This document shows, piece after piece, positions 2,039-31,900 of a stretch of 32,849 nucleotides of DNA (position 1 is the first letter of the stretch; each line of letters begins with the position of its first letter). This DNA comes from a virus (taxonomy: Duplodnaviria; Heunggongvirae; Uroviricota; Caudoviricetes), in the IMG/VR virus record IMGVR_UViG_2778261588_000008, positions 1-32,849 of that record. One strand, 5' to 3'. The position numbers were made by a program, and so were the translations under genes. The notes under the pieces are model-generated. The model saw only the letters and a list, made by a program, of their open reading frames with translations. It was not told the DNA's origin and made no database searches.

Positions 2039-2410
2039 TCAGAGCCGTATGTTTGTAGCGGGTTCAATACTGATAATTTCTGCTGAGATAAGCATCCCGG
2101 CAAGCCAGAGTTCTCCGGACAGGTCTTCATCCTGACATATCAGTTCGCCAATATTAATGGTGGCCATGATATCTGTTTCCCCTGTGCGCTCATCCTTGAC
2201 TTCTTCATAAGGCAGCGTTGCGTACAGGCTTTCAATAGCGCAACTGATAACATCCAGTCCGGTCAGATTGCCGCCGACAGTAACTTCGAATGTTTCGCGG
2301 TATTCCCATAGTCCGAAAGTTAATCGAACGGTTTGGTTTGCCATGCGTCCGCATGACGTCAGATTCGGGTCATAGTTCATTATTTGCGGTTGAGTATTCT
2401 GGGTGTTCAT
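2039..2410 (-). CDS. hypothetical protein (123 aa)
   Basis: ORF 2039-2485 trimmed to the ATG (MNTQNTQ) with AAGGGA SD at 7-nt spacing; avoids overlap with upstream SPFH gene; preceded by a 7-bp GC hairpin (2417-2435). Confidence 0.5.
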   Translation of the reverse strand: MNTQNTQPQIMNYDPNLTSCGRMANQTVRLTFGLWEYRETFEVTVGGNLTGLDVISCAIESLYATLPYEEVKDERTGETDIMATINIGELICQDEDLSGELWLAGMLISAEIISIEPATNIRL

Positions 2411-2450
2411 CTGCATTTCCCTTAGCCCGGCGGCCTGCCGGGCATATAAG

Positions 2451-3278
2451 TTATTTAATCTGGATAAATGGTGTATTGGCACCACTGGTCATGTATTGCG
2501 GCAGTGTACCGTTCCACTTGTTGATGGCTTCCAGCTCCATGACGCCTGGGTTCTGGCGTAGAGCTTCGCCGCGTAAACGAATGGCATCGGCTTCTGCCTG
2601 GGCTTTTGTTCGAATGGCATCAGCCTGTCCGGCAGCTTCCGCACGTAGCATGTTGGCCTCCGCTTCACGTTGCTTGACTTCCTGCTCGCGCTGCAGGGTT
2701 TTCTGGTTTGCCGTGACTTTGGCGTTAATGCTGTCGATAACGGTTGGAGGGTATTCCGGTTTACCTACATAAGAGAGGCTCATTACCTGAATGCCGATGG
2801 GTGTCATCTCTTCCTGAATGTCTTTAAGTGCGGCATCCAGTAGTTCAGACTTGCCACCGTCGATAAATTTGTCAGTGGTCATTTTGCTGGCCAGCCGATT
2901 GAGTGCGTCGGCAATTTTCTGGCGCAGGTCAGTGTCGGTAATGTCATCCACGCCTTTGCGGTAGGTCTGAAACACCGTGGTAACTTTGGATGGATCAACT
3001 TTGTAGGCCACACCGATGTGATAGCCGATGGTTGTACCGTCACTCATCTGGAAACTGAACGGTTCATCGTAGGTCTTCATTTGTTTGAAGGTGGGGAAGA
3101 TATAAACTTCAGTATTCCAGCCAGTCCAGTAGCGACCAACACCGACCACCTCACCGACACCTTTGTCGTCGCCTAGTTTATTTACCTTGATGCCAACATT
3201 ACCTGGTTCAACGCGATCGCAACCGACAAGGCCAATAGTCGGCAGAACAATGGCTAAAGCAAAAATAATTTTTTTCAT
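2451..3278 (-). CDS. SPFH/band-7 (stomatin/prohibitin/HflK-C-like) lipoprotein
   Basis: 275 aa; N-terminal signal with lipobox LVGC; central SPFH-like region followed by Ala/Glu/Arg/Gln-rich coiled coil (REQEVKQREAEANMLRAEAAGQADAIRTKAQAEADAIRLRGEA) typical of band-7 proteins; SD AAGGA 7 nt before ATG; start overlaps stop of upstream small membrane ORF. Confidence 0.8.
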   Translation of the reverse strand: MKKIIFALAIVLPTIGLVGCDRVEPGNVGIKVNKLGDDKGVGEVVGVGRYWTGWNTEVYIFPTFKQMKTYDEPFSFQMSDGTTIGYHIGVAYKVDPSKVTTVFQTYRKGVDDITDTDLRQKIADALNRLASKMTTDKFIDGGKSELLDAALKDIQEEMTPIGIQVMSLSYVGKPEYPPTVIDSINAKVTANQKTLQREQEVKQREAEANMLRAEAAGQADAIRTKAQAEADAIRLRGEALRQNPGVMELEAINKWNGTLPQYMTSGANTPFIQIK

Positions 3279-3486: not shown

Positions 3487-3594
3487 TTAACCGACTGACA
3501 GCGCAATAAAGAGAATAATGATTTCAGTTAGTGTCAGCACTGTGGCAAGGATTAAAATCAGTTTTACTCTGTTTAATTCACGGTTGCTTTTCAT
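3487..3594 (-). CDS. possible membrane micro-protein (35 aa)
   Basis: Hand-translated MKSNRELNRVKLILILATVLTLTEIIILFIALSVG; single predicted TM helix; no convincing SD, so low confidence. Confidence 0.25.
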   Translation of the reverse strand: MKSNRELNRVKLILILATVLTLTEIIILFIALSVG

Positions 3595-3639
3595 ATAAAC
3601 GGTTAGTAAAAAATGGAAGAATTATAGTCTTCTTAATAT

Positions 3640-4221
3640 TTAATGTGTCACTGGCGCTTCTGGCATACCATGAGTATTCAGGTCGTTAATCATTTCATCC
3701 AGAAGGAGTTCAAGCCCTTCGCGCCCCATAGCAGAGAGAATGAAACCATTATCAGGATCTGCGATGAGCATTTTTTGATAGAGAAACAGAACTCGCCCCA
3801 TGCCTTCAGTTTCGCCATATTTTTCAATAAATCCCCATTCGACATGGTTTTGCAGGGCAATGCGAAGTGGTCCTGGGTATATACTCATGCAACCATGTTT
3901 CCCCTTATAAATAACTGCGCGATCTGTCGTCCCGTTATCGTTAGGGATATCAATAGTGCCGTTCTTGTTTTCCTCTTCACTGATAAACGTTGCCACATAC
4001 AGCCAGCGCCATTGAGCAACCTTCATATCGACTGAAAATCTTCCCAGGAATCTGGCATCATCGGCTTCAGCAATACATTGCATGATTCTTAAGCCGTGCC
4101 AGTATGGATTGTCGTATTCACCATCATTAAGTCGCTGTACGGCCTCAACATAATCAATGGTTGTATTGTCAATTTTTATGCCATGAGCTGTCGCTTCTGG
4201 TTTGAATTCAAAATTGTTCAT
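3640..4221 (-). CDS. hypothetical protein (193 aa)
   Basis: ORF 3640-4296 trimmed to ATG at 4221 (MNNFEFK) with AAGGAA SD; start overlaps stop of upstream 62-aa ORF. No recognisable motif. Confidence 0.6.
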   Translation of the reverse strand: MNNFEFKPEATAHGIKIDNTTIDYVEAVQRLNDGEYDNPYWHGLRIMQCIAEADDARFLGRFSVDMKVAQWRWLYVATFISEEENKNGTIDIPNDNGTTDRAVIYKGKHGCMSIYPGPLRIALQNHVEWGFIEKYGETEGMGRVLFLYQKMLIADPDNGFILSAMGREGLELLLDEMINDLNTHGMPEAPVTH

Positions 4222-4406
4222 AATGTTTGTTCCTTTGCTGGTGGAATAATCGTGTAACCCGCTCTTTTTGCCATCCACAGAAATGTATCCATGCAACCAA
4301 CGAATTCATTATCCAACAGATGTTTTGAGTAAATTACTTCACCATTTTCAATGGTTAGCAACACTCTTACTTTTTTATGTGTTATGTTCTGTTGTTTTTC
4401 TTTCAT
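4218..4406 (-). CDS. hypothetical protein (62 aa)
   Basis: ATG at 4406 with GGGAGA SD 7 nt upstream; translationally coupled to the 193-aa gene. Confidence 0.5.
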   Translation of the reverse strand: MKEKQQNITHKKVRVLLTIENGEVIYSKHLLDNEFVGCMDTFLWMAKRAGYTIIPPAKEQTL

Positions 4407-4610
4407 TTATTTATCTCCCATATGCTTTGCGCAAATACAGGTTGGCTATATGAAGATAAGAATCTCCATGTTGTGCAATGAGGCAGGCAGTTTTATACGA
4501 TGCCTTATTTTTCAGGAAAGCCATAACATAATCTCCTGCGAATAAAGGTTGCAACAATCCCCGGCGATAAAACCGTAATAAACATTCAGTGAATATTTAT
4601 TGTTATTGCG

Positions 4611-4802
4611 CTAATTCTTTTTGACTGCAGCTTTCGAATATTCACATGCAAAAGACAGGATTTCATCACCTAATGTTTTTGCATTCTGATTATTTGACAT
4701 CTGTAAAACTTGCGCAGCGCACAACAGACTATGAATGTTTATTGCAAATGAATCCGATGCCAGACAAATACCTTCGAAATTGTCATGGATATTACTATTC
4801 AC
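4611..4802 (-). CDS. small protein, stand-alone paralog of the N-terminal domain of the upstream HTH protein
   Basis: 63-aa ORF with GTG start at 4802 and AAGGAG SD 8 nt upstream that overlaps the stop of the 150-aa gene. Shares DSFA(L/I)NI..LL.A......K.LG.E...F..EY..AA with residues ~25-75 of the 150-aa protein. Confidence 0.5.
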   Translation of the reverse strand: MNSNIHDNFEGICLASDSFAINIHSLLCAAQVLQMSNNQNAKTLGDEILSFACEYSKAAVKKN

Positions 4803-4807
4803 TGCTG

Positions 4808-5260
4808 TTACTCCTTTGCAGCATTGCTACCAGTCAATAACCACATCGGATCGCAGCCAAGAATATTTGCCAGTGGGATAAGCATACTGATGGTTGGTTC
4901 ATACTCTCCGCTCTCCCACTGGATGATGATTTCTTCATCAAGAGCGAGCAGCCTGGCGAGTTCGGCTGTTGTTAAGCCGCAGGCTTCGCGTTGGGTGCGA
5001 AGGTTAACCAGCCAGCTTTCAGGGAAGGATTGTTTTTGTTGTGCAGGAGAAGCAGCAGATAGAGCATATTCATGGATAAATTCCATTACCTCAATGCCCA
5101 GTTCCTTTGAGCGAGCACAATCCAGAAGATGGAATGTGCGTACAGCACTTAGCAAATTTGCAATATTTAATGCAAAGGAATCAAGTTCTAAGCCCTTAAG
5201 CGTAACACAGCCGCAGTTGATAAAATTAGTTGTTTCTGGAGTTGCTTTTAGTGTCTTCAT
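4808..5260 (-). CDS. XRE-family HTH DNA-binding protein with N-terminal accessory domain
   Basis: 150 aa; C-terminal HTH_XRE-like segment (GLTTAELARLLALDEEIIIQWESGEYEPTISMLIPLANILG); first gene downstream of a strong leftward promoter; SD GGTGGA. Confidence 0.7.
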   Translation of the reverse strand: MKTLKATPETTNFINCGCVTLKGLELDSFALNIANLLSAVRTFHLLDCARSKELGIEVMEFIHEYALSAASPAQQKQSFPESWLVNLRTQREACGLTTAELARLLALDEEIIIQWESGEYEPTISMLIPLANILGCDPMWLLTGSNAAKE

Positions 5261-5313
5261 ATATCCACCAACAATTTTAAATTGAATTAAATCAAGTTAT
5301 AATTGATGGTGCG

Positions 5314-5342
5314 ATATTATGCTTTGGGAAATAGGCTGTCAA
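5314..5342 (-). promoter_or_regulatory. leftward early promoter (PL analog): TTGACA - 17 bp - TAATAT
   Basis: On minus strand: -35 TTGACA (5342-5337), 17-nt spacer, -10 TAATAT (5319-5314). A 17-bp near-palindrome ATCAAGTTATAATTGAT (5291-5307) sits at the predicted transcription start and is a candidate OL operator. Confidence 0.55.
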
Positions 5343-5372
5343 GAAAAAATTGATATCGTATATTTCAGGCAG

Positions 5373-5392
5373 AAAAAAACGGGCAAAGCCCG
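5373..5392 (-). terminator. intrinsic terminator downstream of cI
   Basis: On minus strand CGGGC-TTT-GCCCG hairpin followed by T7, 14 nt after the cI stop codon. Confidence 0.7.
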
Positions 5393-5405
5393 TTAAAATC
5401 AAAGA

Positions 5406-10551: not shown

Positions 10552-11939
10552 CCACTCCAGTATGGCGTAACGATGATCTGGAAGGCGCTGTCATTGGCGC
10601 GTTTTTTCTGCGTGGGGCAGATCATGAAGTGATGGATATTCTGGCCACACTGCCAGCGGACGTTTTTTCTGTACGAGCGTATAGGGATATCTACACAGGC
10701 ATCTGCCGACAGGCTCGTGTTTCAGGTGTGATTGATCCTGTGCTGCTGTGTAATGAAATGCCGGAACTTGCTCCGGTGATTACTGATACCGGGCGTAAAA
10801 CCTGGGTGAAGTCTTCACTGGAGCACTATGTTGCAGCGTTGCGGCGCAATGCTGCATTGCGTGATGCAGAAAAAACACTGAATGAGGCGCTGCAGAAATT
10901 ACGTGATGCGCATACCTGTGAAGCAGCTGAAGATGTCCTGAAGGATGCGCAGAACATGATGGCTTCATTGTCGACGGAAAAGGGCATTATTCAGCCGGTA
11001 CATATTGATGATGTGCTTCCGGAGGTGGTTGAGCGTGTTGAATGCCGGAATCAGGGACTGGAAAAATCCAGAACGTTGATGACCGGTATTGATGAACTGG
11101 ACGCAAAAACAGGCGGCATGGAGCCCGGCGATCTGGTATTTATTGCGGCTCGTCCGTCAATGGGCAAAACCGAACTGGCGCTGGATATCATCGACAAGGT
11201 GACTGAGCAGGGGCATGGTGTTCTTCTGTTCACAATGGAAATGGCGAACATTCAGATCGGTGAACGCATGGTGTCTGCTGCCGGAGGAATGCCTGTATCG
11301 CGCCTGAAATCTGTCTCTCACTTTGGTGACGAAGACTGGGCGCGTTTCATTAAGGGGGTGGAGCTGATGACCGGACGCAATATCTGGATGGTGGACCAGG
11401 CGAACCTGACCATTGATGAAATATGCGCAACAACGAAACACCATCTGATTAAACACCCGGAAACGGCGCTGGTGGTGGTTGATTATCTCGGGCTGATAAA
11501 AACCCGTACCATAGGACGTCATGACCTTGCCGTGGGGGAAATATCAAAAGGGCTTAAAGGCCTGGCAAAATCCGGCGGATTACCGGTGGTTGCGCTGAGC
11601 CAACTTTCCCGTGGAGTTGAGTCCAGACCCAATAAACGACCTATGAACTCAGACCTGAAAAATTCCGGAGAAATAGAGGCTGATGCAGACATCATTCTGA
11701 TGCTTTACAGGGATGAAGTGTACAACCCGGATACGCAGGCCAGAGGCATTGCAGAAATCAATATCACGAAACAACGTAACGGTTCTCTGGGGACGATTTA
11801 CCGGCGTTTTTATAACGGACATTTTCTGCCCGTAGACCAGGAAAGCGCACAGATTCTTTCCACCCCAATGCAGCAGCCCCAGCCGCGCAGATACAGCAAT
11901 AAGCGAACCGACAGCAGTAAGATGGAGCGTTTCTTTTGA
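10548..11939 (+). CDS. dnaB: replicative DNA helicase (DnaB family)
   Basis: 463 aa; Walker A ARPSMGKT, RecA-like C-terminal domain (VVVDYLGLI, ALSQLSR), N-terminal DnaB-type domain; GGAGGTG SD. Confidence 0.9.
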   Translation: MTTPVWRNDDLEGAVIGAFFLRGADHEVMDILATLPADVFSVRAYRDIYTGICRQARVSGVIDPVLLCNEMPELAPVITDTGRKTWVKSSLEHYVAALRRNAALRDAEKTLNEALQKLRDAHTCEAAEDVLKDAQNMMASLSTEKGIIQPVHIDDVLPEVVERVECRNQGLEKSRTLMTGIDELDAKTGGMEPGDLVFIAARPSMGKTELALDIIDKVTEQGHGVLLFTMEMANIQIGERMVSAAGGMPVSRLKSVSHFGDEDWARFIKGVELMTGRNIWMVDQANLTIDEICATTKHHLIKHPETALVVVDYLGLIKTRTIGRHDLAVGEISKGLKGLAKSGGLPVVALSQLSRGVESRPNKRPMNSDLKNSGEIEADADIILMLYRDEVYNPDTQARGIAEINITKQRNGSLGTIYRRFYNGHFLPVDQESAQILSTPMQQPQPRRYSNKRTDSSKMERFF

Positions 11940-11950
11940 ACAACCAGACC

Positions 11951-12193
11951 ATGACTTTTACGCCTGAACAATTACGTAAACAGGCACAGGAAATGTTACG
12001 ACAGGCGGAACAACTGGAAAAGACAGGCGTAACAAAAGATGCCATTCGTAAGGATATGGTGCCAGCGCTCAGGGAACTGATGCAGGCGAAACACCGTGCA
12101 CAAAAAGCAGTGGATGAGCTGGTGGATTGTGTGGCAGAGCTGGAAACCAAAGTTGGAAAGTTCGAAAAACTGGTGCAGGAGGTACTGCGCTGA
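11951..12193 (+). CDS. hypothetical coiled-coil protein (80 aa)
   Basis: ATG at 11951 (the ORF-track start at 11936 is TTG inside the dnaB stop); highly charged helical sequence. Confidence 0.45.
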   Translation: MTFTPEQLRKQAQEMLRQAEQLEKTGVTKDAIRKDMVPALRELMQAKHRAQKAVDELVDCVAELETKVGKFEKLVQEVLR

Positions 12194-12540
12194 TGCGTGA
12201 TATGTACGACGTTTTAGATCGTTGGGGGGCCTGGGCTGCAGCAGATAACAGTGGTGTGGACTGGCAGCCGATAGCAGCAGGCTTCAAGGGGCTTTTACCA
12301 CGCGGTAAAAAGTCACGTCTCCAGTGTGATGATGATGAGGGGCTCATGATCGATGGGTGCGTAGCTAGATTAAGAAAGTACAAACCAGAAGAGTATGAGT
12401 TAGTTATAGCCCATTTTGTGGTAGGGATTTCATTGCGAGCCATTGCTAAGAAGAGAAAGTGTTCGGATGGGACTATCAGGAAAGAGTTGCAAACATCGCT
12501 TGGTTTCATTGAAGGCATTGTTTGCACTCTTGCCTGTTAA
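12193..12540 (+). CDS. putative late-gene antiterminator, small Q-like (QuuD-type)
   Basis: 115 aa from ATG 12193, overlapping upstream stop. MRD..VL.RWGAWAA N-terminus and C-terminal HTH-like segment recalled as typical of small Q-type antiterminators; position after replication genes and before lysis fits Q. Homology not verified. Confidence 0.4.
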   Translation: MRDMYDVLDRWGAWAAADNSGVDWQPIAAGFKGLLPRGKKSRLQCDDDEGLMIDGCVARLRKYKPEEYELVIAHFVVGISLRAIAKKRKCSDGTIRKELQTSLGFIEGIVCTLAC

Positions 12541-12561
12541 CTATTCTTAACTGTCTTCTAG

Positions 12562-13446
12562 TTATATTGGGCGCTTTGAATTCGATTTAAAGCGTCTTCC
12601 ACTTATTCCAGAAACCCAAATGTCTTCCTCAAGAAAGTCAAGAAGGGCTTTTATTTCTTTTTTTGATGAAGGCATGACAATTTTCTCAACACCACCAACT
12701 ATTATGGTTTGTAAGGGGAATTTAACTTTAGCAGCTTCGGATTTAAACTTTGACATATTTGGGAGTGTTAGCATCCCAGTCTGATTTATTAGTGTTACTT
12801 TATTTCTTATCACTGTATCTGCAACGGATTTTAGATCAAAACCTTGGGGAGTAGAAAATACACTAAGTTGACTAAATGCATTAAGTTCTTGGTCAGTAGC
12901 AGCAGAAAAATAGGACGACATGTCAAAAATACTTCTTAGATTAAAGAAACTCTTAAATCGTATTGTATCATTGATAATTATTGCAACTAGTTTATCATCA
13001 ACATTAAAACCGATGCTATTAGCTTTACTAAAGGTAGTTTTGCTTGCACAAAGCTTTCCAAAGAATGATTTTGAGGTATCTAAGATTTGTTTTTTGTTGA
13101 AAGTTTGTAGTGCAATAATATTGGGGTTTGCTGGCGCGTCAACACCAACAAATAATGCTTTAATATAACCAATATCAATTTGGCTAGGATCCCAGATAGG
13201 CACGGCGGTAGGCCTATTGACTGCGTCAATCAGGCGTGCAGAATCAGTAAAGTTTTGTATTTCAAAACACTCACTATGTTTTGGTGTATAACCGGCATAG
13301 AATGGTATCATATTGTTATGATGACTTTCAAAATATTGACGCTGTTGTTGGAAAATGGCCGTAACAGAAGTACTTGCTGTTGCATCAAGTTCGACTCTAA
13401 CAATTCTCGTTGCAATTGTATTATCTATTACTGCAAAAAGTGCCAT
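12562..13446 (-). CDS. hypothetical protein (294 aa), second gene of counter-oriented AT-rich cassette
   Basis: ATG at 13446 with AAAGGA SD; 6 nt downstream of the membrane-protein stop; visibly AT-rich codon usage unlike flanking phage genes; no catalytic motif recognised. Confidence 0.7.
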   Translation of the reverse strand: MALFAVIDNTIATRIVRVELDATASTSVTAIFQQQRQYFESHHNNMIPFYAGYTPKHSECFEIQNFTDSARLIDAVNRPTAVPIWDPSQIDIGYIKALFVGVDAPANPNIIALQTFNKKQILDTSKSFFGKLCASKTTFSKANSIGFNVDDKLVAIIINDTIRFKSFFNLRSIFDMSSYFSAATDQELNAFSQLSVFSTPQGFDLKSVADTVIRNKVTLINQTGMLTLPNMSKFKSEAAKVKFPLQTIIVGGVEKIVMPSSKKEIKALLDFLEEDIWVSGISGRRFKSNSKRPI

Positions 13447-13451
13447 GGTTA

Positions 13452-13970
13452 TTATCCTTTAACATGTAGAAATGTGTAGTCTGTTAATTGAATAACTGTA
13501 AATTTGATATCTTTAATATCAGTAATGACTGATTTAGAAATCAATACAAAACCTACGCCGGTGTCATCTTCAGCTTCGTAAAATTTATAACCGATAAGTG
13601 ACAATACTGGGTTAAAGTTATAGTTCTCGGAAAAGCTGATGTAAAATAACAATGACAAATAAAAGAATAACGCATATGCTTTATTTTCAGCAATAGAATC
13701 TGTTCCTAGGAGAGGGAATAAATAGCTTAAGAAATAATTAGTTACTTCTTTGTTAGCGGGAGAAACTGAACTAATATTTTTTGTCAGAGGTTCAAGTTGT
13801 TTCTCAGCATATTGAATCAGGCCTATTGCTAATAACCAACTTGCTATGCCAACGCATAAGCTATATTGCATCAGCCAAACCGTATCTTTTACATATCCAA
13901 TAAAAAATAGAGTTGCGCAAACAGGTGCAATTGAGCTGGCTGTTAATAATAAGCGTGCTAATTTGTTCAT
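13452..13970 (-). CDS. integral membrane protein (~4 TM helices), first gene of counter-oriented cassette
   Basis: 172-173 aa (two adjacent ATGs, AAAGGA SD); four hydrophobic segments then a ~60-aa soluble C-terminus; AT-rich. Confidence 0.7.
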   Translation of the reverse strand: MNKLARLLLTASSIAPVCATLFFIGYVKDTVWLMQYSLCVGIASWLLAIGLIQYAEKQLEPLTKNISSVSPANKEVTNYFLSYLFPLLGTDSIAENKAYALFFYLSLLFYISFSENYNFNPVLSLIGYKFYEAEDDTGVGFVLISKSVITDIKDIKFTVIQLTDYTFLHVKG

Positions 13971-14135
13971 CATGATATCCTTTGTACTGTTTATGCATAC
14001 AGCACTTTACATCATGTACTCCAAAGTATCTATCTTGTGAAGAATCTTACACTAAATACTACAGAAAAGTTAACGCGTACGCAAAAAGTATTATATCGTG
14101 TTAAGAGTGGTTACTTCGCCACACAGCTTAAACCC

Positions 14136-14154
14136 GCTCGACAGCGAGTTTTTT
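14136..14154 (+). terminator. weak intrinsic terminator-like hairpin
   Basis: GCUCG-ACAG-CGAG(U) stem then U6; plus-strand orientation. Confidence 0.3.
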
Positions 14155-14278
14155 AGTGTCCGAAAAGCGGTACAGGACGTTAAATGCGCTGGTGGTTGCG
14201 AATACAGGTCTTTCAACTTGCTGGCTTTTTCGACAAGAGTTATTGGTATGTCACGTTAACCAGAAAAGGGAAAAAGAC

Positions 14279-14476
14279 ATGCTAAAACAGCAGGATATGA
14301 CCGAAACAGCCAGAGTGGTGTTTAATGAGTTAAGCGTCACCGAACCGGCGACCGTCGGGGAGATTGCACAGAATACTTACCTTTCACGCGAACGCTGCCA
14401 GTTAATACTGACCCAGCTTGTTATGGCGGGTCTGGCAGATTATCAGTTCGGTTGTTACAGACGCCTTTCGCAGTGA
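14279..14476 (+). CDS. small putative winged-helix DNA-binding protein (65 aa)
   Basis: ATG 14279 with AAGGGA SD (the ORF-track start at 14156 is GTG with no SD); followed by a terminator overlapping its stop. Confidence 0.45.
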   Translation: MLKQQDMTETARVVFNELSVTEPATVGEIAQNTYLSRERCQLILTQLVMAGLADYQFGCYRRLSQ

Positions 14477-14486
14477 AGGCTTTTTT
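14463..14486 (+). terminator. intrinsic terminator
   Basis: GCCTT-TCGCAGTG-AAGGC hairpin followed by T6. Confidence 0.5.
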
Positions 14487-14626
14487 ATTTGTGGTAATGG
14501 GCGGCTGGTGGGTGTTAGCGGCACCTGCCAGCCATCTGCTCATGCGTTGGGGTCACAAGCAAACCTCAGGCCCATCTGCTTTGCGCAAAAGCGGAATGAG
14601 CCTATCAGAGAAGTGCTTATTGATCT

Positions 14627-15673
14627 ATGGCTAATACTGTAAAAATATCCAGTTGTGAGTTAATCAACGCTGATTGCCTGAAATTTATCCGGACCTTACC
14701 GGAAAACTCTGTCGATCTGATAGTCACAGACCCGCCATACTTTAAAGTGAAGCCCGAGGGCTGGGATAACCAGTGGAAGGGCGATGATGATTACCTGCAA
14801 TGGCTGGACCAGTGTCTGGCTCAGTTCTGGCGGGTATTAAAACCTGCCGGAAGTCTTTACCTGTTCTGTGGTCATCGCCTGGCATCTGACACCGAACTCA
14901 TGATGCGTGAACGTTTTAATGTGCTGAACCACATTATCTGGGCGAAGCCGTCCGGACGCTGGAATGGGTGCAACAAGGAAAGCCTGCGGGCGTATTTCCC
15001 GGCAACAGAGCGCATTCTGTTTGCCGAACATTATCAGGGGCCATATCAGCCAAAAAATGACGGCTATGCGGCAAAAGGGCGCGAGCTTAAGCAGCACGTA
15101 ATGGCCCCGCTGATTTCTTACTTCCGTGATGCGCGTGAATCACTGGGGATAACGTCAAAACAGATAGCTGAAGCCACCGGAAAGAAAAACATGGCTTCGC
15201 ACTGGTTTGGTACCAGTCAGTGGCAGTTACCGAATGAGGCCGATTACAGTAAACTACAGGCGCTGTTTGCACGTGTGGCGGCAGAAAAACACCAGCGCGG
15301 TGAACTGGAGCAGCCACACCACCAGCTGGTCAGCACATACAGCGAACTGAACCGGCAATATGCCAGCCTGCTGGAGGAATACAAATCACTGCGGCGTTAT
15401 TTTTCCGTATCGGCTGTTGTTCCTTATACGGATGTCTGGACGCACAAGCCCGTGCAGTTTTATCCGGGTAAGCATCCCTGTGAAAAACCGGCGGATATGT
15501 TGCGTCAGATAATTACTGCCAGCAGCCGTCCAGGCGATTTGGTCGCAGATTTTTTTATGGGGTCGGGGTCGACAATAAAAGCGGCACTGTCGCTGGGACG
15601 CAGGGCGATTGGCGTGGAACTGGAAGAGGAACGTTTTAATCAGACGGCCAGAGAAATAACGAAAGATTTTTAA
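14627..15673 (+). CDS. orphan DNA N6-adenine methyltransferase (beta-class, N6_N4 MTase family)
   Basis: 348 aa; motif IV DPPY near N-terminus (LIVTDPPYF) and AdoMet motif I F.GSGST near C-terminus (FFMGSGSTI): circularly permuted beta-class order; no adjacent restriction endonuclease gene. Confidence 0.85.
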   Translation: MANTVKISSCELINADCLKFIRTLPENSVDLIVTDPPYFKVKPEGWDNQWKGDDDYLQWLDQCLAQFWRVLKPAGSLYLFCGHRLASDTELMMRERFNVLNHIIWAKPSGRWNGCNKESLRAYFPATERILFAEHYQGPYQPKNDGYAAKGRELKQHVMAPLISYFRDARESLGITSKQIAEATGKKNMASHWFGTSQWQLPNEADYSKLQALFARVAAEKHQRGELEQPHHQLVSTYSELNRQYASLLEEYKSLRRYFSVSAVVPYTDVWTHKPVQFYPGKHPCEKPADMLRQIITASSRPGDLVADFFMGSGSTIKAALSLGRRAIGVELEEERFNQTAREITKDF

Positions 15674-15890
15674 TTCAGTGATGATATAAGTTGTATATTT
15701 CTGATACAGATGTATACACATATTTAAAACTGAACACCAAATATATTTTTGATGTCTGAAAAACTGTCGTTAGTATTCTGACTGGTCCGGAAGACGGTTA
15801 TTTTTGTGTTCACAGGGGCGTTACTATCGTCTGAAGGACCAGTGCTGGCTTTCCTGGTAATTCGTGTGATTCCGGAAGCCAGTACAGTAT

Positions 15891-15965
<75 letters not shown>

Positions 15966-16330
15966 GCATTTGAAACAAGCCTTATTGTATTGCGGCACTG
16001 GCGTATTTTTTATTACGTGGGAGCAGGTTGTTTTGAAAAAGCATTTTGTTCTCTGGCTATGATTTGAGGCCAGGTGTAGCCTCAGTGCTGATTTTTTTAC
16101 GACAGCAGAATGGTGCATTATCGGTGGAGATTTTGTATTTCCTGGCAGGGTCGGTGATGCATCATTCTGGTGTTGTAAATCGCACCAAAGAGGCGCACCT
16201 CAGTGCGAGGGTGGTTTAAAGAGTCGGTTTAGCGGGAAACCACAGTATCCATACAGCACGGAATACTTCGGGAGGCACCCGACGCCTCGGTTTAATAACA
16301 ATTAAAAAATTCATCCCTTGCATTGACCAA

Positions 16331-16353
16331 CCGCCATATCTGGCGGTTTTTTT
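16331..16353 (+). terminator. intrinsic terminator in the tRNA-to-lysis non-coding region
   Basis: CCGCCA-TATC-TGGCGG hairpin followed by T7. Confidence 0.6.
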
Positions 16354-16679
16354 ATTCCTTTCTCAGGACGAAAAAAGACACGAGCATCCAGGAATACTCG
16401 TGGGACAACGTCCTTTGGATAGCAATTTGCGAGAGGGTGAAAAGTAGCGCGGTCGTCGGATTAAGACCGCGGGACAAAGTCCATGAAGAATAATAAGTAT
16501 TGGCCCCCTTCCGGGGACATGTTCATACTACTAAGCTTCAGAAGTGGTTTAAATCCTCAAATTAACCTTAATTTCCGATAAGTCTTATTTCATTTCTTTG
16601 CGCCACATCTGGCGCGCATCAAATAACGCCACGCAAAGAGCATCTGCGGATGCCGGTGCTTTTGACGGGGTGTTTTTAC

Positions 16680-16701
16680 GGGCCGCTGGTGGCCCTTTTT
16701 T
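16680..16701 (+). terminator. terminator/attenuator-like hairpin immediately upstream of the lysis operon
   Basis: GGGCC-GCTGGT-GGCCC hairpin then TTTTTTATTT, ending 19 nt before the first lysis-gene ATG. Confidence 0.45.
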
Positions 16702-16719
16702 ATTTACAGGAGAAAAAGT

Positions 16720-17112
16720 ATGTCTGAACCCTTGTCCGGTTCCGGCACGGCTGCGGCGCTCGGCGGGGCGACGGTATTCGGGCTGTTTACTGGAACGGAT
16801 TTCGGGATTGTGTTTGGTGCGTTCGCCGGGGCGTTGTTTGTGGCAACGATGCCGCAGAAGATTTCAGCCTGGCGTGTGGCGGCACATTTTCTGGTGTCGT
16901 TCATTGTTGGTGTACTGGGGGCGCGTGTACTGTCAGCCTGGATTGCATCAAAAACAGGTTATGACGGTACATCTGCGGATGCACTGTGTGCGGTGCTGGT
17001 GGCGGTGGTGTCGGTGAAGACTCTGTCGTTCATCCACCAGCAGGATATCGCATCACTGGTGTCCGGCCTGTTCTCGCGCCTGCGGGGCGGAGGAGGCGGC
17101 AATGTTAAGTAA
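16720..17112 (+). CDS. putative holin (multi-TM membrane protein)
   Basis: 130 aa; AGGAG SD; 3-4 Gly/Ala-rich hydrophobic helices, charged C-terminus; first gene of cluster ending in endolysin. Confidence 0.55.
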   Translation: MSEPLSGSGTAAALGGATVFGLFTGTDFGIVFGAFAGALFVATMPQKISAWRVAAHFLVSFIVGVLGARVLSAWIASKTGYDGTSADALCAVLVAVVSVKTLSFIHQQDIASLVSGLFSRLRGGGGGNVK

Positions 17113-17380
17113 CCTTCCCGGATTGCTGAATGTGGCGTTATGCACGGTTACCGTGCTGACGCTCTTTTTTTATCGTCGCCGTGATTCCAGACATAAACCG
17201 CTGATGTCATGGCTGGCCTGGCTGCTGATGCTGCTGTATGCCTTTGCGCCCCTCAGCTATCTGTGTGGTCGCCCGTTAGCGGCGAACTGGCTGGCGGTGG
17301 GGCTTAATTTGCTGTTCTGCGTGCTGGTGATTCGCGCACGCGGGAACGTTTCAAAAATCCTTGTATTACGAAGGCGCTGA
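17102..17380 (+). CDS. putative second holin / antiholin-like membrane protein
   Basis: 92 aa; 3 hydrophobic segments, basic C-terminus; overlaps upstream gene end and abuts endolysin start. Confidence 0.5.
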   Translation: MLSNLPGLLNVALCTVTVLTLFFYRRRDSRHKPLMSWLAWLLMLLYAFAPLSYLCGRPLAANWLAVGLNLLFCVLVIRARGNVSKILVLRRR

Positions 17381-17381
17381 T

Positions 17382-17927
17382 ATGAAGTCGAAAGATGAAA
17401 TTTTTGACGAAATTCTGGGAAAAGAGGGCGGTTACGTCAATCACCCGGATGATAAAGGTGGTCCGACTAAATGGGGCATCACTGAAAAAGTTGCCCGTGC
17501 ACACGGTTATCAGGGCGATATGCGTGACCTGACGCGTGGGCAGGCGCTGGAAATACTCGAGGCGGATTACTGGTTCGGGCCACGTTTTGACCAGGTCGCC
17601 GCATTATCCCCTGATATTGCCGCAGAGTTGTGTGATACCGGTGTGAATATGGGGCCGTCCGTAGCATCGAAAATGCTCCAACGCTGGCTGAACGTTTTCA
17701 ACCTGCAAGGCAAATTGTTCCCGGATATGGACGCAGACGGGCGTATCGGCCCCCGCACGATTAACGCACTACGGACTTATCTGCAAAAACGCGGCAAAGA
17801 CGGCGAACTGGTGATGCTGAAGGCGCTGAATTGCACGCAGGGCGACCGCTATCTGGGGCTGGCAGAAAAACGCGAGGCCAACGAGTCGTTTGTCTACGGC
17901 TGGATGAAAGAGCGCGTAGCAGTTTAA
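17382..17927 (+). CDS. endolysin, GH108-type muramidase with C-terminal peptidoglycan-binding domain
   Basis: 181 aa from ATG 17382 (ORF-track start 17361 is TTG); N-terminal EGGYVNHPDDKGGPTKWGIT matches GH108 signature; C-terminal region resembles PG_binding_3. Confidence 0.85.
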   Translation: MKSKDEIFDEILGKEGGYVNHPDDKGGPTKWGITEKVARAHGYQGDMRDLTRGQALEILEADYWFGPRFDQVAALSPDIAAELCDTGVNMGPSVASKMLQRWLNVFNLQGKLFPDMDADGRIGPRTINALRTYLQKRGKDGELVMLKALNCTQGDRYLGLAEKREANESFVYGWMKERVAV

Positions 17928-28204: not shown

Positions 28205-28506
28205 CGCTTCCGGGGATGCGTTTTCTGATGATGCTGGCACTCAGGATGGGGCGCACATTGTCAGAGTTACGCCGGGAAATGTCCGCATCAGAAATCATGA
28301 TGTGGGCAGAATTTGACAGGTTCAGCCCGCTGGGGGACGAACGGGCTGATATCCGGGCTGCCCAGATTGTTTCAGCTGTTTACGGTGCGCAGGGTGTCAA
28401 AGTACCACTGAATGATGCGCTTCTTCAGTGGGAGCATGAATCAGAAGAAAATAAATGCGATGATCCATTTATTGGATTAGAGGTTGCTCTAATGTCTTCA
28501 CTATAA
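28198..28506 (+). CDS. T-frame extension of tail assembly chaperone (G-T fusion via -1 programmed frameshift)
   Basis: Frame -1 relative to G is open from the slippery heptamer A-AAA-AAG (28195-28201) through 28506, reading ..KK-VALPG-MRFLMML.. with no intervening stop. Confidence 0.6.
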   Translation, partial: KVALPGMRFLMMLALRMGRTLSELRREMSASEIMMWAEFDRFSPLGDERADIRAAQIVSAVYGAQGVKVPLNDALLQWEHESEENKCDDPFIGLEVALMSSL

Positions 28507-28564
28507 GATAATTTTTTAATCGTTTTGAAATTGAATGCTTTACTCAAAGCCAGGAGGATTAATC

Positions 28565-28906
28565 ATGAGAAAATCAGTGGTGACATTAGCTTGTTTGTTT
28601 TTTATTAGTGCATGTAAGCCATCAGATAATTATGTTATTTCTTTAGGGGAAAACTTAGTTAAAGATAAGCTTATTGATCCTGATAGTGCAAAATTTAATT
28701 CTTTTTTTCATAAGTCAGGTGATTTATATGGTTATGTTTGTGGTGATGTTAATTCAAAAAACACGTTTGGTGGATATACAGGGAAAAAGCCATATTTTGT
28801 TTATTTGGAAGTTGTGGATGGAAAAGTTAAGAGTCATGGGACTGTAACAATTGTTAATGATCATGATCCAAGCAGTATGGAAAAATATAAGTTGTTTTGC
28901 CAATAA
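28565..28906 (+). CDS. lipoprotein moron (113 aa), unknown function
   Basis: ATG 28565 with AGGAGG SD (ORF-track start 28535 lacks SD); signal peptide with lipobox FISAC; visibly AT-rich; followed by terminator. Confidence 0.6.
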   Translation: MRKSVVTLACLFFISACKPSDNYVISLGENLVKDKLIDPDSAKFNSFFHKSGDLYGYVCGDVNSKNTFGGYTGKKPYFVYLEVVDGKVKSHGTVTIVNDHDPSSMEKYKLFCQ

Positions 28907-28920
28907 TTATCATCTTAAAA

Positions 28921-28941
28921 AACCGCAGAAGCGGTTTTTTT
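28921..28941 (+). terminator. intrinsic terminator after lipoprotein moron
   Basis: AACCGC-AGAA-GCGGTT hairpin followed by T-run. Confidence 0.7.
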
Positions 28942-28955
28942 ATGGGGTAAAGTAA

Positions 28956-31900
28956 ATGGCGACATTACGTGAGCTGATTATTAAAATCTCGGCAAATTCC
29001 CGGTCATTCCAGTCAGAGATCTCCCGGGCTTCGCGTATGGGGCAGGATTACTACCGTACCATGCAGAACGGAGGCCGGCAGTCCGCTGCTGCATCCCGTG
29101 AAATGCGGCGTGCACTGGCAGAAGTGACGGATCAGATAAATACAGCTAAATCTTCGGCACTGAATATGGCGGGGGCATTTGCCGGGGCTTTTGCTACCGG
29201 TCATCTTATTTCTCTCGCCGATGAGTGGAATTCAGTAAATGCCCGTCTGAAGCAGGCCTCACAGTCCACTGATGATTTTCAGGTATCACAACGTGAATTA
29301 ATGGCAATCAGCCAGAGAACGGGAACGGCGTTTTCTGATAACGCCAGCCTTTTTGCCCGCTCTGCAGCTTCCATGCGGGAGTATGGCTACAGTTCTGAGG
29401 AGGTACTGAAAGTCACCGAGGCTATCTCCACGGGCCTGAAATTATCCGGTGCCAGTGCAGCAGAAGCCAGTTCGGTGATCACGCAGTTCAGTCAGGCACT
29501 GGCGCAGGGAGTGCTGCGCGGTGAAGAATTTAACTCTGTGAATGAGAACGGCGATCGTGTTATTCGTGCGCTGGCTGCGGGAATGGGTGTTGCCCGTAAG
29601 GATCTGAAGGCCATGGCGGATAACGGAAAGTTGACCGCCGATAAGGTTGTTCCTGCACTGATTAGTCAGCTTGGGGCGTTGCGTGATGAATATGCAGCAA
29701 TGCCTGATACGGTTTCATCCTCTGCAACCAAAGTTGAAAACGCCTTTATGGCCTGGGTTGGTGGTGCGAACGAAGCAAGCGGAGTGACGAAGACGCTCTC
29801 CGGTGTGCTGAATGGTATTGCAGGCAATATTGACACTGTGGCAACCGCTGCCGGTGCTCTGGTTGCCGTCGGGGTAGCCCGATATTTTGGCAATATGGCA
29901 TCTTCTGCTGGATCTGCAACTGCCGGATTAATTACTGCAGCCAGAAACGAAGTAGCTCTTGCGGAAGCGCAGCTCCGGGGGACGCAGATAGCAACCGCCA
30001 GGGCGCGTGCGGCGGTTTATCGTGCGCAACAGGCGGTCGCGGCTACCCGTGGTACTGAAAGACAGGCAGCCGCAGAAGCGAAACTGGCTGCTGCCCAGGC
30101 ATCACTTACCCGTAATATTGCGGCCAGAACAGCAGCACAGACAACGCTGAATACTGTCACGTCAGTGGGGAGTCGTTTATTAAGTGGTGCGCTGGGGCTG
30201 GTTGGTGGTGTGCCGGGACTCGTCATGCTGGGGGCGACGGCCTGGTACACGATGTATCAGAATCAGGAGCAGGCCAGAGAATCTGCACGCCAGTATGCCG
30301 CAACAATCGACGAAATTCGCCAGAAAACGTCGGCAATGTCGCTTCCTGAAGCGTCAGATAATGAGGAAAAGACGCGGCAGGCACTGGAGGAACAAAATCG
30401 CCTGATTAACGAACAGGAAGGAAAAATTCGCGGACTGAAAAATCAAATTGCTGATTATCAACGTTGGCTTGATGAAAGTTCGCAGAGTGGTTCTGGTGCT
30501 GAAATCATCCTTAAAGGGCTTGCAGAAGCAACAAATCAACTGGCAGTTGAACAGTCCCGTCTCACACAAATGCAGGGCAAAGCGCAATCCATTCAGGATG
30601 TGCTTGCCGGGCTGGAGGAGCGACGAGTGGCGTTGATCCGTCAACAGGCAGCGGAACAAAACAAAGCGTATCAGTCCCTGTTGATCATGAATGGGAAGCA
30701 TACCGAGTTTAATCGCCTTCTCGGGCTTGGTAATGAATTACTTCAGCAGCGACAGGGGCTGGTGAATGTACCGTTACGGCTACCACAGGCAACTCTGGAT
30801 GATAAACAGCAGACCGCACTGAATAACAGCAAGCGCGAACTGGCTCTGTCCCGCCTTAAGGGGGAAGCGCGTGAGCGTGCCCGACTGGGCTATGCTGCGG
30901 ATGATCTCGGCTTTGTGGGAGAGGCGTATCGGACAGCCAGACAGAATTATATCAATAACTCACTGGATGCCTGGCGAAATAACCAGGCAAATAAACCCAA
31001 AGCGCATAAAAAGACCGAAGCGGAAAAAACAGAAGATATTTATAAACGGCTGATTAAACAGCAAAAAGAACAGATAGCACTGGCAGGGCAGAATACTGAA
31101 CTGGCTAAGATGAAATATCAGGTCAGTCAGGGCGAATTATCAACCCTGTCAGAAGCGCAGAAAAAAACGCTTTTGCAGAATGCAGCACTCATCGACCAGA
31201 AAAAGATTCGTGAGCAGCTTGCCGCGTATGAAAGCAGTCTGGCGGACAGTAATGCCAGTGCCCGGGCATCTGACGACGCGCAGTTGCTGGGATATGGTGA
31301 AGGCTCACGGATGCGTGAACGACTCCAGGAAATGTGGAGTATCCGGCATGAGTTTGAGCAGAAAAATAACGAGCTGCTGAGACAGTATCAGGCCGGAGAA
31401 ATTGAAGAAGCCCTGTGGAAACAGGAGAAAGAACTGAATAAAAAATATCTGGAAGAGCGTCTCAGCGATCAGCAGGATTATTATGCAAAGGCCGATGCTT
31501 TACGTAATAACTGGAATGCCGGACTCCAGGAGGGACTGACCAACTGGGCAGACAGTGCCACCGATTATGCTTCACAGGCGGCAGATGCTGTTGTTTCCAC
31601 GATGGACGGGCTGGTATCAAATATTTCCGATGCACTGGCCGGGAATGTTGTGGAGTGGAGGAACTGGGGGAGTTCAGTTCTCCGGGAAGTTTCAAAAATT
31701 CTGATGAATGCGGCCATTGTTAACGGACTGAAGTCACTCTCCGGTGCCGGAGGGTGGCTTGGTACGGTCGGCGGATGGATTTCGGGGGCGGTGGCAAACG
31801 CAAAAGGTGGTGTTTACACATCGGCAAATCTGAGTGCTTACAGTAACACTATTGTGGATACACCGACGTATTTTGCTTTTGCGAAAGGTGCCGGGCTGAT

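Follow-up and report, generated by a model that had tools for sequence, protein, structure and literature searches.

A probable Kiwa operon carried beside the antiterminator Q gene of a lambdoid prophage

What is a pair of AT-rich genes doing on the minus strand, between the antiterminator Q gene and the lysis module of a Caudoviricetes genome? The question is raised by IMG/VR record IMGVR_UViG_2778261588_000008, of which positions 1 to 32,849 were analyzed as one stretch of 32,849 nucleotides (hereafter the window). An initial annotation, made from the sequence alone, had put the pair forward as an undescribed defence or exclusion system, and had taken its likeness to the Kiwa system (KwaA and KwaB) as an architectural analogy only. 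On the analysis reported here, the cassette is very probably a complete Kiwa operon that a lambdoid prophage carries as a moron and that acts by the mechanism of characterized Kiwa; a promoter of its own most likely drives its expression in the lysogen. Kiwa is a defence system for which the source is reportedly Doron 2018. The finding is therefore a real one, yet the system is already described, and annotated in public databases. The two genes, both intact open reading frames (ORFs), are the following:

13452–13973, minus strand: kwaA, 173 amino acids (aa), membrane component of Kiwa
12562–13446, minus strand: kwaB, 294 aa, by homology the soluble DNA-binding effector component of Kiwa

Both ORFs were found at exactly the positions and lengths first given. 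At the local composition a codon is a stop with a probability of 0.071, and a frame would stay open by chance with P ∼4e-10 over 294 codons and ∼3e-6 over 173 codons, and these are therefore real genes; homologues of the two proteins reach E-values of 1e-104 to 1e-182. Most kwaA homologues start at the second ATG, giving a protein of 172 aa. The genes are adjacent and co-oriented, with kwaA upstream of kwaB, as is the layout of Kiwa. Their tight coupling had been noted from the start, as had the AAAGGA motif that precedes both start codons, and both stand; the spacing had been given as 6 nucleotides (nt), but the kwaB ATG follows the kwaA stop codon after only 5 nt (TAACC). The ribosome-binding site of kwaB falls within the last codons of kwaA. 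The kwaAB region is compositionally foreign, with a G+C fraction (GC) of 0.326 for kwaA and 0.351 for kwaB, and a GC at third codon positions (GC3) of 0.28 and 0.24 respectively, whereas GC is about 0.50 in the flanking DNA; genes nearby, namely those for Q, helicase, methylase, lysis and head proteins, range from 0.47 to 0.59 in GC and from 0.45 to 0.64 in GC3. The AT-richness that had singled out the cassette is thus confirmed.

Profile searches place both proteins in the Kiwa families. KwaA matches the PADLOC model PDLC00216 over positions 1–172 of its 173 positions (E 1.9e-83), and 11 further PADLOC KwaA models. KwaB matches PDLC00225 over its full length (E 3.9e-148), one of six KwaB models matched altogether, as well as the Pfam family PF16162 (KwaB/DUF4868), where residues 108–281 score 29.2 bits against a gathering score of 26.3 (E 1.1e-6). 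The DUF4868/KwaB domain that characterizes Kiwa is thereby recognized by Pfam and PADLOC alike. PHROGs lists both proteins among phage-borne families without an assigned function. With the KwaB profile, 1,028 clusters (50% identity level, E up to 1e-3) are retrieved, and the subfamily of about 290 aa is spread over the Enterobacterales; among Enterobacterales homologues, 22 columns of KwaA and 47 of KwaB are invariant.

Structural models of the two proteins were built from alignments of 41 and 42 homologues. The AlphaFold2 model of KwaA (predicted local distance difference test score, pLDDT, of 78) has helices at residues 2–28, 32–59, 76–89 and 98–114, and strands at residues 62–72, 130–136, 141–146, 157–162 and 167–170, consistent with a predicted architecture of four transmembrane helices and a cytoplasmic beta-barrel, as in Kiwa. 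When this model was compared to the PDB with Foldseek, the best seven matches were all KwaA chains (9mrx_A, 9mrg, 9mrr), with template-modelling scores of 0.57–0.70 and a probability of 1.00, and the next match had an E-value of 0.48. The initial call of four transmembrane helices is accordingly supported by the modelled helices and by the match to solved KwaA, while by simple hydropathy only the first two are seen. KwaB consists of an N-terminal alpha/beta domain followed by the C-terminal DUF4868 domain, and its predicted fold matches that of solved KwaB. For both models, the structural matches in the PDB are the solved KwaA and KwaB only.

The profile and structure searches for KwaA and KwaB/DUF4868 that had been suggested at the outset have thus both come out positive, and the likeness to Kiwa is one of homology rather than analogy, given the full-length PADLOC matches, the Pfam KwaB score above threshold and the structural matches. 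Because gene order, spacing, profiles and folds all agree, the cassette is read as a complete Kiwa operon. A porin, an adhesin or a metabolic enzyme was considered for either protein and rejected, as no such match was obtained in Pfam, NCBIfam or the PDB.

Several results weigh against this identification. Searches of the PDB with phmmer for each protein, up to an E-value of 10, and with profiles of the clade alignments returned no Kiwa entry, so that the link to the solved Kiwa structures comes from fold searches only. In structural alignments to the solved Kiwa of E. coli O55:H7, identity is as low as 9–12% for KwaB and 16–18% for KwaA. KwaA scores 46 bits (E 5.1e-12) against the NCBIfam model NF041622, short of the equivalog cutoff of 100 bits; since this score is significant yet under the cutoff, KwaA is, judging by its sequence, a homologue within the family and not an equivalog of KwaA of the O55:H7 type. 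The published KwaB interface and DNA-contact residue numbers, the latter being R142, R167, K187, R233, N134 and D169 (PMC11785009), do not map onto the KwaB of the window by simple numbering; the invariant basic residues in its clade are K152, R171, R214, K216, K266, K291 and R292. A scan for consensus promoters gave 7 sites, compared to 7.1 in shuffled sequence, and no convincing promoter for the cassette. Finally, kwaB differs from its close copies by 4–7 non-synonymous and 2–8 synonymous changes, which leaves purifying selection unclear at this short range.

The deep divergence in sequence is what would be expected of a Kiwa-like homologue that shares the fold and differs in its trigger or effector step, acting for instance on another target, or as a superinfection exclusion system specific to the prophage. 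Consistent with this, both proteins are shorter than their O55:H7 counterparts (173 against 195 aa for KwaA, 294 against 315 aa for KwaB), the published contact residues are not recognizable by position, and published Kiwa clusters differ in phage specificity (PMC11785009). However, conservation extends to both folds, to gene order and to the two-protein architecture, neither Pfam nor NCBIfam points to an added enzymatic domain in either protein, and all five Kiwa operons tested, from different clusters, gave anti-phage protection (PMC11785009). I therefore regard a different mode of action as improbable. Differences in trigger or specificity within the Kiwa mechanism are nonetheless plausible in this clade, because of the 9–18% identity to the O55:H7 proteins and the loss of about 20 residues in each. 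More generally, clade-specific profiles and fold comparison still recognize a Kiwa clade that plain sequence searches fail to connect with the solved structures.

In the O55:H7 Kiwa, membrane tetramers of KwaA bind KwaB dimers through their cytoplasmic beta-barrels, forming a fence-like supercomplex (PMC11785009). In the published Kiwa work, the complex localizes to phage attachment sites and appears to sense membrane distortion (PMC11785009). KwaB binds DNA via DUF4868 and stalls replication, so that late transcription is prevented, without abortive infection; Kiwa also lowers conjugation, and is inhibited by lambda Gam (PMC11785009). Both genes were needed for protection with the Kiwa operons of ECOR8, ECOR12, ECOR49, D9 and Ralstonia (PMC11785009); none of the 33 complete E. 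coli genomes that carry the present cassette (see below) bears the strain names ECOR8, ECOR12, ECOR49 or D9.

By homology with these other Kiwa clades, the KwaA of the window would form tetramers in the inner membrane of the lysogen, and KwaB dimers would attach to their beta-barrels on the cytoplasmic side. The trigger would be a disturbance of the membrane, at the attachment site of a superinfecting phage or where a conjugative pilus acts. KwaB would then bind the incoming DNA through DUF4868, stall its replication and block late transcription, and the cell would survive, to the benefit of both the lysogen and its resident prophage.

How such an operon could be expressed in a prophage depends on its surroundings, which comprise the following features:

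12193–12540, plus strand: antiterminator Q gene (PF06530, E 9.4e-46), converging on kwaB
13974–14069, minus strand: region upstream of kwaA, with an AAAGGA ribosome-binding site at 13980–13985 and the presumed cassette promoter
14070–14154, plus strand: late-promoter-like element, with a core conserved across phages and prophages
14279 (ATG): start of a small TrmB-like ORF of 65 aa
14627–15673: DNA methyltransferase of the orphan N6/N4 type (PADLOC MTase_II, E 2e-152)
15891–15965: tRNA-Gly(TCC)
16720–17112 and 17102–17380: holins, lysis module
17361–17927: GH108 endolysin, lysis module

The cassette is therefore indeed counter-oriented between Q on its left and the lysis module downstream, as had been proposed. 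Upstream of kwaA, the best promoter candidate that could be read by hand is TTCACA-17-TACATG, at about 14041–14013, and is held with low confidence; this upstream region is nearly identical in the copy of the cassette found in the H1827/12 prophage. On the other side, a terminator scan found none after kwaB. An imperfect long hairpin is present in the minus-strand RNA at 12476–12535, inside the 3′ end of Q and just past the kwaB stop (minimum free energy −30 kcal/mol, z −3.3). It was considered as a kwaB terminator and not called, as it lacks a T-run; it could act as a 3′ stabilizer, or as a barrier for converging transcripts.

The Q stop codon ends at 12540, 21 nt short of the kwaB stop at 12562, and the initial annotation was correct in stating that a late promoter would not fit there. 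A late-promoter-like element is found on the far side of the cassette. It comprises a −35-like TTAACG (14070–14075), a −10-like TATCGT (14094–14099), a conserved leader of about 40 nt (14100–14137), and a hairpin followed by a T-run (14136–14154), the scan reporting a terminator-like site at 14136–14149. Its core of ∼60 nt is invariant in six phages and prophages. In the cargo-free Combat2C1 prophage, the element starts 17 nt past the Q stop, with ADP-ribosyltransferase/AB5 toxin genes and then a holin next to it. I infer, from where the element lies and how it is built, that it corresponds to PR′/qut/tR′, a Q-dependent late promoter with an early terminator. The late promoter would then not be missing from the window: none follows Q directly because the inserted cassette separates Q from the element, which has been displaced downstream by 1.5 kb.

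If the element is such a promoter, Kiwa lies outside the late transcription unit and opposite to it. Being upstream of the element and in the other orientation, the cassette would be insulated from Q-dependent late transcription. After induction, early rightward transcription through Q would run against that of kwaAB, which might be lowered as a result.

Within the element, the hairpin of the window (GCTCG-ACAG-CGAGT) is weaker than the CCCGCC...GGCGGG stem of the other five phages, and the right-hand homology breakpoint of the window, between the Kiwa block and a segment of phiP27/Stx type, falls inside this hairpin (14136–14154). Past it, the TrmB-like ORF, the methyltransferase and the tRNA-Gly(TCC) gene (14279–15965) stand where phiP27 and Stx2 phages have the same small ORF and methylase, with ileZ/argN/argO and stx after them; this region of the window lacks a toxin gene. 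An Rfam scan of 11800–16800 returned the tRNA-Gly only.

The distribution of the cassette was then compared across public sequences. In NCBI, 80 contigs encode the exact KwaB, which is annotated there as ‘Kiwa anti-phage protein KwaB-like domain-containing protein’; the exact KwaA is encoded on 862 contigs. Some of the RefSeq genomes with the cassette give KwaA as ‘KwaA family protein’. The system can therefore not be termed undescribed. With Kiwa described and structurally solved, and this very KwaB already labelled, the finding carries little weight as a discovery, and a high-scoring defence candidate is cleared from the list. The cassette is present in 33 of 5,426 complete E. coli genomes, at 98.8–99.4% nucleotide identity and always on the chromosome, and in every listed genome an ‘antiterminator Q family protein’ adjoins it. 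No copy was found in the plasmid collection, and no close copy in the collection of deposited phages, where a Klebsiella phage (47%) and the Pseudomonas Pf phage PfAC02a (32%, annotated as KwaB) were matched.

These copies bear on a further rival, that of a silent or decaying cargo without phenotype in its host, being either AT-rich DNA silenced by H-NS or an allele that has lost its function. The very low GC of the cassette and the lack of a detected consensus promoter would fit this, as would the departure of KwaB from three other copies at four positions that these share (C133, L228, P229 and K242). Yet both ORFs are full length relative to their profiles, kwaA shows no non-synonymous and two synonymous differences to three other E. 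coli copies, and the numbers of contigs with the exact alleles imply that the allele is established and spreading. Silent or decaying cargo is thus highly improbable, and a functional Kiwa operon remains the preferred reading.

Comparison of prophages at this locus, as had been advised initially, also shows how the operon moves. The MEI7BO1-21 prophage shares its backbone with the window, which it matches as far as 12197 and from 16600 onwards; between these points it lacks the Kiwa block, and has a different Q and other genes. Together with the cargo-free junction of Combat2C1, this shows homologous sites with and without the cassette. Conversely, the H1827/12 prophage is otherwise unrelated (P27-family terminase, sheathed tail), but shares exactly 12191–14152 with the window, at 98%. 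This block contains Q, kwaB, kwaA and ∼180 nt upstream of kwaA, and its exact sharing by an unrelated prophage indicates that the mobile unit is Q, Kiwa and the right-hand element together. The combination of the Kiwa block with the right-hand segment of the window was found in none of the complete E. coli genomes searched. Overall, the description of the cassette as counter-oriented, horizontally acquired defence cargo of the Q-to-lysis region was right.

The junction between Q and the late-promoter-like element is variously occupied in other phages and prophages. In phiP27 (1240–2469 of the compared segment), a single plus-strand gene, L22, lies between Q and the element, and matches PD-Lambda-1 (E 2e-89). 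SfII (437–1459 of the compared segment) has two counter-oriented genes, of which orf50 matches the PADLOC candidate PDC-M53A (E 2e-32), and Stx2a_WGPS2 (907–2470 of the compared segment) has a counter-oriented gene pair, gp26 and gp27, with no match to a defence model. MEI7BO1-21 carries an ORF6N fragment, and in Combat2C1 the junction is empty (1801–1914 of the compared segment). The cargo proteins of phiP27 and SfII are unrelated to Kiwa, but the insertion point is identical. Tentatively, the junction could be a dedicated cargo slot of lambdoid phages, exchanging often counter-oriented defence cassettes; the lysogen would express these out of reach of Q-dependent late transcription, and converging early transcription might damp them after induction. 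I hold this to be possible, if rather doubtful. If true, the Kiwa clade of the window is one occupant of the slot, and gp26/gp27 of Stx2a_WGPS2 is a candidate new system. In a narrow literature search, no account of this slot as a hotspot for defence genes was found. The anatomy of the insertion, and its movement with Q between unrelated prophages, make this a good place to seek further prophage cargo.

Other parts of the window were also noted. A second AT-rich stretch (3500–5400, GC 0.38–0.42) lies between the genes on the integrase side and the CI-like repressor. Two of its ORFs, at 3640–4296 (minus strand) and 4785–5285 (plus strand), have no Pfam or PADLOC match, and for the overlapping ORF at 4808–5260 (minus strand) only a helix-turn-helix similar to the N-terminus of RmrA was seen. 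The integrase gene is adjoined by genes for an SPFH/Band 7 membrane protein (2451–3278, minus strand) and a DUF5406 protein (2039–2485, minus strand), neither with a PADLOC match, which could be further cargo expressed in the lysogen. Between the tail assembly chaperone and tape measure genes, GC falls to 0.31 (28501–29000) around an ORF of 123 aa (28535–28906); it has no PADLOC match, and the related prophage L002 has a hypothetical gene at the same place.

Among the known copies of this cassette, those of the H1827/12 type (WP_001163087.1, WP_031617482.1) are flanked as in the window, by this Q gene to the left and the promoter-like element to the right. They differ in their context, with P27-family terminases, DUF968/KilA-N early genes, and a holin gene directly after the element, whereas in the window the block joins the phiP27/Stx-phage-type segment, with the TrmB-like ORF, the methyltransferase and then tRNA-Gly. 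Compared to the characterized Kiwa of O55:H7 strain RM12579 (PDB 9MRX, 9MRG, 9MRR, 9MTN, 9O0I), the window has the same two-gene kwaA-kwaB operon and, by prediction, the same domains, namely four transmembrane helices and a cytoplasmic beta-barrel in KwaA, and an alpha/beta domain with DUF4868 in KwaB. Besides being shorter, its proteins fall in PADLOC sub-models (PDLC00216 and PDLC00225) different from those of the O55:H7 pair and, unlike that reference, the Kiwa of the window is carried in a lambdoid prophage, beside Q.
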